Shown here: positions 41,317-44,662 of the stretch, piece after piece
How positions within the stretch are numbered: position 1 is the stretch's first letter
Layout of the letters: every line of letters starts with the position of its first letter
Source of the DNA: Escherichia coli
Lineage (GTDB): Bacteria; Pseudomonadota; Gammaproteobacteria; Enterobacterales; Enterobacteriaceae
Length of the DNA: 64,000 bases
Strand: one strand, 5' to 3'
NCBI RefSeq assembly: GCF_030384885.1
Contig: NZ_CP128614.1
Made by a program: the position numbers and the translations under genes
The notes under the pieces: generated by a model
Told to the model about the DNA's origin: nothing
Databases searched by the model: none
What the model saw: only the letters and a program-made list of their open reading frames with translations

Positions 41317-42048
41317 ATGGATGCTTTCAATCTGCTGTGGAGCATTACGGGGGTAGCTTTCATTATCCTTATTTTCGTCGTGTTGCTGTGTCTGTTGGGT
41401 TTTATGACCTCTGCCATAGCGGAACGGCGGACTGCAAAGGCAATTGAATCTGGGCTTCCTGAAGAAGCTCAGGGGCTACTTAGTGATCTCACCTTTCAGT
41501 TGTCGGCTCATAGCACTACTCAGGTTGATCACATTCTCGTAGCCCCACATGGTATATACGTCATAGAGCAGAAAAACTACGTAGGCAAGCTCTACGGTAC
41601 TCTGGAGGAAAGCCACTGGCGGAAATGGACTCAGTCCCGAACCCTCAAGTTGCAGAACCCGTTTAAGCAAAACCAGGGGCACATCAGGGCTATTCAGTCT
41701 GCTCTTAAGGCTAGAGAACTGGAATGTATCAATGTCGTCATCATAAACGGACGTTGTAAGTTTGATGGCATCAAGCCGGAATGGTTATGTATGGGGATGG
41801 ACGATTTTATCCATAAAGTCAAACAACGACGAGGGCTACGGTTGTTCACACCGGAGTCTGTTCAGCACATCTGTTCGGTGTTGAAGTCAACAAGGAAGTC
41901 GCCAGGGCTCTATACGGACCTTACTCATATTCACAACATAACGACAAAGTACAAAGCCCCGATGAAATTCGAGCAACGAGTAACATACATTCTGCTCAAC
42001 TTTATCCATTATCTGTGGGCAAGTCTGTTCACTAAGCAGAAGCCTTAG
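41317..42048 (+). CDS. NERD-domain (nuclease-related) membrane-anchored protein
   Basis: 243-aa ORF with N-terminal TM helix and NERD-like motif (VDHILVAPHGIYVIEQKNYVGKLYG); start 2 bp after the peptidase stop. Confidence 0.55.
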   Translation: MDAFNLLWSITGVAFIILIFVVLLCLLGFMTSAIAERRTAKAIESGLPEEAQGLLSDLTFQLSAHSTTQVDHILVAPHGIYVIEQKNYVGKLYGTLEESHWRKWTQSRTLKLQNPFKQNQGHIRAIQSALKARELECINVVIINGRCKFDGIKPEWLCMGMDDFIHKVKQRRGLRLFTPESVQHICSVLKSTRKSPGLYTDLTHIHNITTKYKAPMKFEQRVTYILLNFIHYLWASLFTKQKP

Positions 42049-42334: not shown

Positions 42335-42697
42335 TCAGGGGTTTAACGCCGGAATATTTTGCCAGGCCTCCTGCAAGGTCTGCAAGACTTCTACAAGTGA
42401 TAGTGACGGCCACAGGACTGTTTCCGTCATTATCACTCCAGGTGGCTCGCACTCTACTGGTACCAGAATTAAAACAACACGAGTTCCTTTTACCTGGTAG
42501 GCAAGGTTTACTGCCGGTTGGCGGTAGGAGGCCAGTACACCCTCACCATATTGAGCAGGGTTACTTGCCCAGTTCCGCACCATTGCATACACCTGAGGCA
42601 TATACCGACTATCCAGATCCCCTTTGGGCCGTCTGAACGGCACGATTTCTTCTGAGCGGTAGGTGGTCGTTGTTGTATTGGTTGTCATCTTTGTCAC
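42335..42697 (-). CDS. Hypothetical protein
   Basis: 120-aa ORF with Thr-rich N-terminus. Confidence 0.35.
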   Translation of the reverse strand: MTKMTTNTTTTTYRSEEIVPFRRPKGDLDSRYMPQVYAMVRNWASNPAQYGEGVLASYRQPAVNLAYQVKGTRVVLILVPVECEPPGVIMTETVLWPSLSLVEVLQTLQEAWQNIPALNP

Positions 42698-42753: not shown

Positions 42754-43038
42754 TTATTTAAGCTGGTCATCGTCTCTGGCCAGCATAGCCCAACCATTCG
42801 ACTGGTTTTCGCGGGAGTAAGGATTCATTTCAAAATAACTATCTACCGCGTCGCTGTCCGCAACAGAACTGTTGTTAGCTCTCTTTGAACCCTGAACCAC
42901 TACAGCATCAACCTCTGCGGCTTTCCCGTTGCGCTGTACCAGGATTTTAACCGTCTTGGGCTTACGTCTTGCGAGCAGTTTGTTGGCGATAAAAAGCACA
43001 ACAATCCAGGCCAAAAGCACGTATAAAAATTTATTCAT
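42754..43038 (-). CDS. Small membrane protein
   Basis: 94-aa ORF with N-terminal TM helix. Confidence 0.4.
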   Translation of the reverse strand: MNKFLYVLLAWIVVLFIANKLLARRKPKTVKILVQRNGKAAEVDAVVVQGSKRANNSSVADSDAVDSYFEMNPYSRENQSNGWAMLARDDDQLK

Positions 43039-43212: not shown

Positions 43213-43394
43213 TCCGTAATAGTTAATTTCAGATCCTTCTTCCAGTTACGCTTCAGTATAAAACCGATACCCTCTAATTCAGCATCCTTCACGTTTAATA
43301 CGCTTCACTTTAAGGCAGGGCTTTTCGGTTGATATGAATTCTTTTTCCGGTTGCTGGACATGGGTTTCATCCTGATAGTTAAAATTGCAGGCTA

Positions 43395-43697
43395 TCAGTC
43401 ACCACCACCACCTCCTCCTCCTCCTCCTCCACCGCCACCATCACAACCACCAGCTATGCTATTTTCACCATTACAATCACCTCCGAGGGGGTTCAAATGG
43501 CTGCTCCCCTGTAGATGGTGTCCTTGCCAGATCGAACCCGAACCAGCGCCTCCTGAGCGTCTTTGCTTGCCCTGAGGCAATTGTGCAGGCTCACCAGCAC
43601 CGGCGGTCCCAAAAATGTCCCGGGCAATTTTATAAAGAAGGTAAAAAGGTACGCCCAGCATCATAAAAAAGATTACTGAAAATATTACACGTTCCAT
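43395..43697 (-). CDS. Small membrane protein with C-terminal poly-glycine tail
   Basis: 100-aa ORF with N-terminal TM helix; C-terminus G13 encoded by the trinucleotide repeat. Confidence 0.35.
   Translation of the reverse strand: MERVIFSVIFFMMLGVPFYLLYKIARDIFGTAGAGEPAQLPQGKQRRSGGAGSGSIWQGHHLQGSSHLNPLGGDCNGENSIAGGCDGGGGGGGGGGGGGD
43402..43437 (+). repeat. Trinucleotide simple-sequence repeat (CCA)3(CCT)6
   Basis: Tract accaccacca cctcctcctcctcctcct read directly; in-frame within the 43395..43697 ORF. Confidence 0.8.
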
Positions 43698-44129
43698 TGA
43701 TGATCTCCTGTCTTGTGAGAGACCAGTTATATCAGGGTGATTCAGTATTTCCGTTTAGAAAAGAGTACTAATTTGGCCCTGTTCGATCTTAATTTGCCAT
43801 CCGGGAAAAAGTCATAGGGATAGGCCTGCCAGAGTCAATAACTTCCAGTGATCTGGAGGAGACCCCGGCTCTCTGAGCCCTCATGGATGGTACGGCTTTA
43901 CCCCCTGTAAACAGATTCACGTTCCGCAGGACAAACATCGACTACTGACGTCTCATATTTGCTGACGCTAATCCGACGTCTCATTGCCGTCTGCTTGTTT
44001 TCTTTAAAGGGTGTATTAGACGAATATCAAATCGGAATGGTAGGGGATGTGTGGGCACCATGCCCGGCCCTCTTTGAGCATCTGAGAGATTGGAGACCTA
44101 GCCGGGTAAGATAGCTACTTTCTTACGGG

Positions 44130-44498
44130 TTACCCTTCAAATCCAAAGACGAAACGGACGCTGCCGTTCTCCACGTGGAGACGCTTTACTTCTTCGACAA
44201 ATTCCTGGATCACCTCTCCGGCGTTATCGGGTGGTATGGCTGACAAAATTTCTTCCGAAGTCAGCCATGAGTATGAATGTTCACCGAATAAATCATCATC
44301 TTCGGACGGTATATCATCAGGTAATCCGCGTAATGCGTGGATAAAAACTGCTGATGTGCTCGCCCTTTCACGATCTACATCAAATCCGAGCCAGGCAAAG
44401 TGGAGATATGATCGGTCCCCTTTATAATTGCTTGATAAATTAATCCATTTACCAGGCTTTTCTTCCCTTTGAAATCGCCAGCAGATATCAACGCCCAT
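44130..44498 (-). CDS. Hypothetical protein
   Basis: 122-aa ORF. Confidence 0.4.
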   Translation of the reverse strand: MGVDICWRFQREEKPGKWINLSSNYKGDRSYLHFAWLGFDVDRERASTSAVFIHALRGLPDDIPSEDDDLFGEHSYSWLTSEEILSAIPPDNAGEVIQEFVEEVKRLHVENGSVRFVFGFEG

Positions 44499-44662
44499 TA
44501 AGAAACTCCATTACTATCGTTCGTATGAGATAACTATCATTTCAGAATACTATGACTTCTTCCCGTATAGAACTAATCGCTCACGCCAACTGGGCGAAGC
44601 CAACCGGTTCCGCCACTTCGCTCATTGGTTTTTAGGCGTAAGCACTGAAGCCAGTCTCCATG

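Follow-up and report, generated by a model that had tools for sequence, protein, structure and literature searches.

The region analyzed herein, referred to as the window, is a 64-kb stretch (64,000 nucleotides) of IncHI2 plasmid backbone with an IncHI2A replicon, a MOBH relaxase and MPF_F. On its minus strand lies an open reading frame (ORF) of 100 codons, which starts with an ATG at 43695-43697, stops with a TGA at 43395-43397, and closes with 13 consecutive glycines and a single aspartate. Its translation reads MERVIFSVIFFMMLGVPFYLLYKIARDIFGTAGAGEPAQLPQGKQRRSGGAGSGSIWQGHHLQGSSHLNPLGGDCNGENSIAGGCD-G13-D*, the C-terminal end being ...AGGCD-GGGGGGGGGGGGG-D*. The features of the locus are as follows.

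43395..43697, minus strand: 100-aa orphan ORF (WP_000442694.1, "hypothetical protein"), with a predicted N-terminal transmembrane (TM) helix and then a Gly/Ser/Gln/His-rich, predicted disordered tail ending in G13-D
43705..43709, minus strand: Shine-Dalgarno sequence AGGAG, separated from the downstream ATG by 7 nt and unchanged in the five aligned lineages
43726..43734, minus strand: TGATATAAC, a possible extended -10 promoter element, picked out by eye and conserved in all aligned lineages
43632..43688, minus strand: predicted TM segment, codons 4-22, VIFSVIFFMMLGVPFYLLY, the best 19-residue Kyte-Doolittle window (mean 2.24)
43551..43559, no strand assigned: 9-bp Tn10 target site, with IS10 outside ends on both sides, at which the ORF is cut after codon 49 in many related plasmids
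43401..43439, minus strand: the whole 13-codon Gly tract, GGT GGC GGT (GGA)6 (GGT)4, from the sequence and codon parsing
43413..43430, minus strand: (GGA)6 sub-tract, (TCC)6 on the plus strand; 6, 5, 4 or 2 copies in related plasmids
43401..43412, minus strand: (GGT)4 sub-tract, (ACC)4 on the plus strand; 4, 5, 6 or 7 copies in related plasmids

Read in frame, the 3' end of the ORF is GGT GGC GGT (GGA)6 (GGT)4 GAC followed by TGA, such that the last 14 codons specify G13 and then Asp, with (GGA)6 and (GGT)4 both inside codons 87-99. On the plus strand the tract reads (ACC)4 (TCC)6 ACC GCC ACC; it contains a perfect (CCT)6 at 43411..43428 and a perfect (TCC)6 at 43413..43430, and Tandem Repeats Finder delimits a period-3 array at 43400..43452. 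A preliminary description of this DNA had placed a run of thirteen glycines at 43402..43437, at the C-terminus of a small membrane protein, and had written it as (CCT)6/(CCA)3. The run is present, its codons occupying 43401..43439 (a trivial offset), and (CCA)3/(CCT)6 is the identical tract on the plus strand, read one base out of phase. The poly-proline that the same description proposed for the opposite strand also exists, in a plus-strand frame with 13 Pro at 43402..43440. This tract is the only perfect trinucleotide repeat of at least six units in the 64-kb window, where three others reach four units, and its 13 residues form the longest single-residue run in all six frames, the runner-up being 6. 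When the window was shuffled (n = 200), the maximum run was 5 in 144 shuffles and 6 in 40, and exceeded 8 in none. Thus, the tract exceeds chance expectation.

Among the five lineages aligned, the AGGAG and the ATG are invariant, and the proximal 165 nt of upstream DNA is almost so. A consensus scan for promoters and terminators returned nothing convincing for the ORF, and no canonical promoter at 43726..43734. Comparison with the relative L010 revealed 14 differing sites in the first 86 codons, distributed 4/1/9 over the three codon positions; the replacements are conservative (I>L, A>S, Q>K and E>D), and the whole-ORF pN/pS of 0.29 (0.3-0.5 over the comparisons of this ORF) is close to the values of neighboring genes. 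In L036, the most divergent relative, the split is 3/3/7 and the protein is 90% identical, with a 1-nt gap ahead of the tail. In the hydrophobic N-terminus, V4I and I9L are the sole changes among homologs. The ORF is annotated as a CDS in every RefSeq record inspected. In pSTM6-275, where it carries the accession WP_000442694.1, it belongs to a series of about eleven small hypothetical genes in the same orientation, and this series converges on mobI, the MobH relaxase, TraD, a DUF4400 protein, an S49 peptidase and a NERD protein (the transfer block, Tra1). Judged from sequence, the minus-strand ORF is most likely a real, accessory, lineage-restricted gene of the IncHI2 backbone.

We regard as doubtful, while granting it some weight, the alternative that the frame is spurious or decaying, held open by its G-rich composition, with the microsatellite residing in a non-essential spacer. 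An orphan that lacks a domain and, across 1.8 billion representatives, any homolog beyond IncHI2-type plasmids would fit this alternative, as would the frequent disruption by mobile elements described below, the 1-nt gap before the tail in the most divergent copy, the openness of both antisense frames, and a divergence from L010 (5.4%) that resembles, and is not below, that of the flanking intergenic DNA (3.4-5.1%). Moreover, the finding that all indels are multiples of three was rejected as coding evidence, since a 3-nt repeat unit guarantees such a pattern, which makes in-frame indels uninformative. Nonetheless, a spacer would hardly be expected to keep AGGAG and ATG invariant and correctly spaced in all lineages, or its 30 N-terminal hydrophobic residues almost invariant with conservative changes only. 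The excess of third-position substitutions, a pN/pS of 0.3-0.5, the co-orientation with about 11 small genes, and the L036 comparison, in which the ORF has diverged by 5% versus 18% for the upstream DNA, likewise speak for a gene.

A gene on the plus strand, be it a 74-aa poly-Pro protein (43351..43575) or a 93-aa His-rich ORF (43385..43666), is scarcely credible. Both frames are open in the window and in L010, and since wobble positions coincide in the poly-Pro frame and the minus-strand ORF, the substitution pattern is compatible with either; the third-position bias was accordingly downgraded as strand-specific evidence. However, these frames start with TTG, or with an ATG at 43360, and have no upstream Shine-Dalgarno sequence, and the poly-Pro frame has undergone radical replacements (W>R, A>E and K>N). 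Both are antisense to all surrounding genes and have never been annotated, and open antisense frames are expected opposite a GGN-rich coding sequence.

Two candidate RNA elements upstream of the coding sequence were set aside. A 5'-UTR hairpin over the Shine-Dalgarno sequence proved no more stable than its shuffles (z = +0.87), and an RNA thermometer was dropped on that ground; an Rfam match to Mu-gpT-DE over the ribosome binding site scored below threshold (24.4 bits versus a gathering score of 49) and was taken as chance.

The product of the minus-strand ORF is most likely a small bitopic inner-membrane protein, modeled with one N-terminal TM helix and a disordered tail of roughly 70 residues. 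AlphaFold2, with a shallow alignment, predicted a single helix, spanning residues 2-29 with a pLDDT of about 80; the other residues were modeled as disordered (pLDDT <50), low-confidence disorder making up 70% of the model. The TM segment at codons 4-22 sits within this helix, and homologs differ there only by I9L. Residues 31-100 are 39% Gly. The segment following the helix has 5 K/R versus 2 D/E, and the N-terminus is merely M-E-R; by the positive-inside rule, this suggests that the tail would be cytoplasmic. The small membrane protein of the preliminary description is thus borne out as a prediction by the ATG with its AGGAG, the Kyte-Doolittle profile, the AlphaFold helix and the RefSeq annotations.

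No match for the ORF was found in Pfam, NCBIfam, PHROGs or PADLOC (families were also sought for five neighbors, all with empty results), and none was found in a PDB sequence search. A word-indexed homology search returned nothing outside IncHI2 copies, and an exhaustive phmmer search of 1.84 billion representatives yielded no remote homolog, the matches being IncHI2 copies that are nearly identical, versions with a frameshift or truncation, and a single low-complexity protein of 515 aa (P0049). The protein is therefore an orphan, its homologs among those representatives being confined to IncHI2-type plasmids. Literature searches with the accessions of the protein found no mention of it, and those on the IncHI2/R478 transcriptome and on polyglycine and plasmids were likewise empty for the gene.

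The locus is widespread among these plasmids. About 975 PLSDB plasmids (975-977 records) and 241 of 5,426 complete E. coli genomes carry it, and the region is 100% identical to that of many large conjugative plasmids from Escherichia, Salmonella, Enterobacter, Klebsiella, Citrobacter and others. Even so, many copies are broken. A 64-aa "variant" (P0013), found in 717 collection blocks, joins the 5' half of the gene to an IS10 outside end: Tn10 (IS10, tetC and tet(B)) has entered behind codon 49 and duplicated a 9-bp target, and the 3' remnant, including the tract, is retained at the other end of the transposon. In p29A16002, ISEc27 lies at the start codon. Such disrupted copies occur on conjugative plasmids typed as fully transfer-proficient, and the gene is therefore accessory. 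It is dispensable.

Class representatives were fetched and their codons parsed, and flanks were compared over a 421-nt query. Match lengths among the records differ by multiples of 3, and alignment puts every indel inside the tract. The window is a member of the uninterrupted lineage, in which ten (GGA)n(GGT)m alleles could be told apart; they specify 3, 9, 11, 12, 13 or 14 Gly, with flanks that are identical or differ by a single SNP. In the list below, the two numbers are n and m.

(6,4), 13 Gly: the window; modal allele
(5,4), 12 Gly: pTBMCR401 and pEC17-NDM-5
(4,4), 11 Gly: pRHB16-C14_2
(2,4), 9 Gly: carried by 24 of the 24 contigs read; 60 blocks in the index
(5,5), 13 Gly: p15-0756.1
(4,5), 12 Gly: Serratia pQC07_1
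(4,6), 13 Gly: pUTAK-8-1 and p35161-1
(5,6), 14 Gly: pYLMB19a
(4,7), 14 Gly: pEC261, pEC476 and pEc1077-278
(GGT)3 only, 3 Gly: SRR10693158

All full-length alleles of finished plasmids are in frame and end in GAC TGA. The preliminary description had suggested a locus whose length might vary without breaking the frame, and such variation is what related IncHI2 plasmids display: their repeat lengths differ, no fewer than ten alleles running uninterrupted with 3 to 14 Gly and several more being broken by Asp, and the differences all fall within the tract. The GGA and GGT sub-tracts vary independently, as is expected of slippage in a compound microsatellite. As a side observation, (6,4), (5,5) and (4,6) all total 13 Gly, which could hint at selection on tail length; A>T substitutions at the boundary of the sub-tracts explain it equally well.

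How often the tract differs was estimated with a second query of 131 nt centered on it, for which any tract change lowers identity. In a PLSDB census of 975 records, 470 were at least 99% identical to this query, 476 were at 95-99% and 28 at 90-95%. Sixty evenly spaced census rows comprised 28 identical to the window, 5 with other uninterrupted alleles, and about 25 with an interrupted allele. Among complete E. coli genomes, a non-modal tract was present in about 7 of the 56 sampled rows of the uninterrupted lineage (the allele of H151 being assumed from a row of identical identity and length), and 12 of the same 56 rows had a single mismatch over the 421-nt query (in one, a 1-nt length difference), the two that were fetched being flank SNPs. 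Exact-sequence look-ups in draft genomes, which reported the three commonest RefSeq alleles as absent there, were left out of the allele counts. About 85% of the plasmids of the uninterrupted lineage thus carry the modal allele and about 12-15% of those sampled do not, a rough estimate from rows that are not phylogenetically independent. Therefore, the 39-nt tract changes several-fold faster per base than its surroundings, a figure that is likewise rough given that the samples are not phylogenetically independent. The variants look coherent by lineage or geography: plasmids with (4,7) came from Japan and Thailand, and those with (4,6) from Salmonella Heidelberg and veal E. coli, both of US origin. 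The tract behaves as a slow VNTR marker, not as a phase-variable locus.

A second lineage of about 400 plasmids, common in Enterobacter plasmids, encodes WP_000442693.1, in which the Gly run is broken by Asp. Its tract is (GGA)2 GGT GAC GGA (GGT)4, which specifies G6-D-G5-D. Minor interrupted variants are G5-D-G5 (p58631) and G6-D-G6 (L010 and Lelliottia P0001), and the tail of L036, once the 1-nt gap is allowed for, reads GG-D-GGG-D-GGG-D. The ancestral tail may have consisted of short Gly runs punctuated by Asp, first as GG-D-GGG-D-GGG-D and then as G6-D-G5-D; loss of the GAC interruption in the E. coli/Salmonella-associated lineage of the window would have left a pure (GGA)n(GGT)m tract that is prone to slippage. 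These plasmids would then offer a natural series showing how a stable tail of Gly and Asp, once it loses a single interrupting codon, becomes a pure repeat that slips.

The tract is also a place where assemblies end. Seven "partial" proteins of 86-94 aa, together representing more than 650 short-read contigs, end within the Gly run. The contigs truly stop there: ...GGTGGCGGTGGAGGAGGAGG is the end of each of four independent Logan assemblies, and ...TGTGATG that of NCBI assemblies. The tract is far below read length and contains no repeated 31-mer; therefore, the breaks are not ordinary repeat collapse. Candidate causes are length heterogeneity at the read level, or strand-specific sequencing failure on a G-rich, quadruplex-prone template. 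We favor the technical cause, because the alleles in finished plasmids are lineage-coherent. Many single-contig "alleles" with one odd residue (A, V, C, R or E) probably arose as errors in the same way, as did several database proteins with a frameshift. Contigs ending in the tract in such numbers could also mean that variation within cultures is much faster than finished plasmids suggest.

The coding strand of the tract has 13 consecutive GG-N units, where a quadruplex-forming (GGA)n repeat needs at least four GG runs with 1-nt loops. Quadruplex-aware folding with ViennaRNA gave up to three tandem two-layer quadruplexes, at -69.7 kcal/mol versus -17.5 kcal/mol without quadruplexes and an average of -19.9 for shuffles, the two-layer energies being crude extrapolations. 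The shorter the allele, the lower the predicted potential, and the G3 allele has none. No Watson-Crick hairpin was detected in the tract (z = +2.0).

These properties raise the possibility that the nucleic acid, not the peptide, is functional: the GG-N tract, through the overlapping GGAGG Shine-Dalgarno-like motifs of (GGA)6 or a G-quadruplex, could stall polymerases or ribosomes and thereby affect replication, transcription or translation of the operon, and the same G-rich motifs could drive tract instability and sequencing drop-outs. Three predicted two-layer quadruplexes whose potential falls with allele length, the lack of a Watson-Crick hairpin as an alternative, and the recurrent contig ends are all compatible with such an element, and quadruplexes of four GGA units, r(GGA)4 and d(GGA)4, have been solved experimentally as two-tier structures in RNA and DNA (PMC7962482). 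Yet the energies of two-layer quadruplexes are crude, and about 400 plasmids have an interrupted tract and some only (GGT)3, such that no specific structure is conserved. A structure that merely promoted slippage would, moreover, be part of the slippage account given below and not a rival to it. We hold a functional nucleic-acid element to be very improbable indeed. Very unlikely, too, is a bolder combination, in which rapid length heterogeneity within cultures, driven by G-quadruplexes or GGAGG motifs, would serve as an in-frame "rheostat" that diversifies the tail of a membrane protein or modulates the passage of ribosomes or polymerases at the end of the gene. If true, it would have consequences for plasmid-host interaction, e.g. 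conjugation, its thermosensitivity, or exclusion.

The explanation that we prefer, and consider probable, is that an accessory IncHI2 gene carries, at its 3' end, a compound coding microsatellite that drifts in length by slippage, probably near-neutrally. Replication slippage would add or remove 3-nt units in each sub-tract independently, giving rise to tails of 3 to 14 Gly. Because the unit is 3 nt and the tract occupies the last 14 codons, slippage cannot turn the gene on or off; it would alter nothing but the length of a flexible C-terminal tail of the protein, wherever the gene is expressed. The polymorphism most likely has little or no effect on fitness and arises as a side effect of mutation bias, not as an adaptive switch, and the change appears slow enough to mark plasmid sub-lineages.

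Length variation of this kind might instead be adaptive, with tail length under diversifying or host-dependent selection and the microsatellite kept as a rheostat, not an on/off switch. Ten alleles with both sub-tracts varying in one closely related lineage could be read in that way, particularly as, in the sampled finished plasmids, tract changes are about as frequent as SNPs in flanks that are roughly 10-fold longer, and as a 6-unit trinucleotide repeat is longer than any in the E. coli K-12 chromosome, where the longest reported has five units (review, PMC7015867). The contig breaks in hundreds of assemblies could, in addition, reflect population heterogeneity. On the contrary, about 85% of the lineage share one allele and the variants look coherent by geography or lineage; Tn10 and IS elements destroy the gene in many successful plasmids; and about 400 plasmids keep a stable interrupted tract. 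We therefore think adaptive tuning unlikely.

For an orphan, dispensable gene the biological stakes are modest unless the heterogeneity is real, and the function of the gene is probably minor. The practical stakes are of another kind. IncHI2 plasmids are major vehicles for resistance genes (mcr, carbapenemase and ESBL genes), and the tract is a cheap VNTR marker for sub-typing them, separating sub-lineages of near-identical epidemic plasmids. Short-read and nanopore assemblies also recurrently break or err at the tract, which yields hundreds of "partial" or frameshifted database proteins and calls for care in backbone comparison.

Several known systems resemble the locus in part. The microcin B17 precursor, McbA, is a small enterobacterial plasmid peptide with a run of about 10 or more Gly, followed by Gly-Cys/Gly-Ser motifs. 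The IncHI2 protein also has a Gly run and Gly-flanked Cys (GDC and GGC), but there is no sequence similarity, its poly-Gly is C-terminal, and its N-terminus is a hydrophobic TM segment instead of a leader. A McbA-like thiazole/oxazole microcin precursor was rejected in view of the missing leader, the N-terminal hydrophobic helix of 19-26 residues and the presence of only two Cys; Pfam and NCBIfam searches of the neighboring ORFs, moreover, found no McbBCD-like modification or export genes (cyclodehydratase or dehydrogenase). A type I (Hok-like) toxin was likewise rejected, the protein having 100 aa with a 70-residue hydrophilic tail versus about 60 aa or fewer for such toxins, and no Rfam antisense or toxin RNA family reaches threshold at the locus. 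The (GGA)n two-tier quadruplexes, as in the R12 aptamer (PMC7962482), find a counterpart in the (GGA)6 within 13 GG-N units of the coding strand and mRNA; here, however, the quadruplex is predicted, and related plasmids conserve neither the length nor the purity of the tract.

The contingency loci of Haemophilus, Neisseria and Campylobacter likewise consist of a mutable simple repeat in a gene with natural length polymorphism. They switch expression through frameshifts or promoter spacing, at a high rate within a clone, whereas the IncHI2 tract has a one-codon unit, lies in the last 14 codons, has all of its alleles in frame and, in finished plasmids, changes slowly at the level of lineages. 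A phase-variable contingency locus was rejected accordingly: the alleles of finished plasmids are all in frame, and no on/off switching results. The closest likeness is to the in-frame coding microsatellites of bacteria (review, PMC7015867), in which a tandem 3-nt unit within an ORF varies in copy number among close relatives with identical flanks, interrupted forms are more stable than pure ones, and no frameshift ensues. The present case departs from them in that the tract is a compound of two synonymous, independently varying units, (GGA)n(GGT)m, and in that it lies at the extreme C-terminus of an orphan protein in the backbone of conjugative resistance plasmids, not in a chromosomal surface-protein gene. 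The locus is best classed as an in-frame coding microsatellite, a previously undescribed instance of a familiar phenomenon.

Among short-read assemblies of independent isolates (relatives L015-L022), more than 650 contigs terminate inside the glycine tract (43401..43439), and they do so at recurrent positions, as for example at ...GGTGGCGGTGGAGGAGGAGG. Short-read contigs that stop within the tract are the source of the "partial" database proteins of 86-94 aa. Such ends may reflect either heterogeneity of the tract or a drop-out of sequencing in G-rich DNA. In two or three draft assemblies (L029), the minus-strand tract is joined to plus-strand sequence lying about 900 bp from it, and the contig stops about 80 nt past the junction. 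The junction spans a 13-nt inverted microhomology, TGGCGGT(A/G)GGAGG, with the following partners in the window:

42519..42531 (+), microhomology partner
43426..43438 (-), microhomology partner, in the glycine tract

This chimeric junction represents either a real 0.9-kb inversion or an artefact of chimeric reads.

The three commonest RefSeq alleles of the glycine-tail protein, WP_000442694.1 (uninterrupted), WP_000442693.1 (interrupted by Asp) and WP_023205309.1, were reported absent on look-up in a collection of 15 billion proteins, whereas rarer alleles were present there. Thus, absence from this index is no evidence of absence for the locus.

In many IncHI2 plasmids (L011, L014), the ORF is interrupted after codon 49 by Tn10, which carries IS10 outside ends, tetC and tet(B), at the following site:

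43551..43559, Tn10 target site (9-bp duplication)

This insertion gives rise to P0013, the widespread 64-aa "protein" in which the 5' half of the ORF is joined to an IS10 outside end. Other insertion sequences gather round the ORF, plasmid by plasmid, in p29A16002_A_KPC (L007), pEC476 (L026) and p707804-NDM (L006); across these three plasmids, the start codon is the site of ISEc27, an element of the IS3 family sits immediately downstream, and IS26 lies upstream. This clustering suggests a permissive insertion zone.

Two further features lie at the start of the ORF or upstream of it:

43695..43737 (-), match to the Rfam family Mu-gpT-DE RNA
44130..44498, 122-aa ORF with weak matches to PHROGs of unknown function

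The Mu-gpT-DE match fell below the Rfam threshold (24.4 bits at E = 0.015, vs a gathering score of 49). It overlies an 8-bp hairpin spanning the ORF's Shine-Dalgarno sequence, and the hairpin's stability did not exceed that of shuffled sequences. The 122-aa ORF lies in a 529-bp segment (44133..44661) that is missing from the divergent relative L010 and is a backbone indel immediately upstream of the glycine-tail ORF.

On the downstream side, the following features were found:

42754..43038 (-), orphan 94-aa protein gene, next downstream
42662..42677, short threonine run T5 (V5 on the opposite strand) at the start of ORF 42335..42697 (-)
41317..42048 (+), NERD-domain protein gene closing the transfer operon

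The 94-aa protein has a single N-terminal hydrophobic helix followed by a hydrophilic tail, so that two small predicted membrane proteins stand side by side; both genes are part of about 11 co-oriented unannotated genes adjoining the Tra1-like transfer block. The T5 run is another codon repeat in the same gene cluster, far shorter than the glycine tract. In PADLOC, the NERD-domain protein matched PglW and MkoA weakly and partially, with E-values of about 1e-6 to 1e-5.
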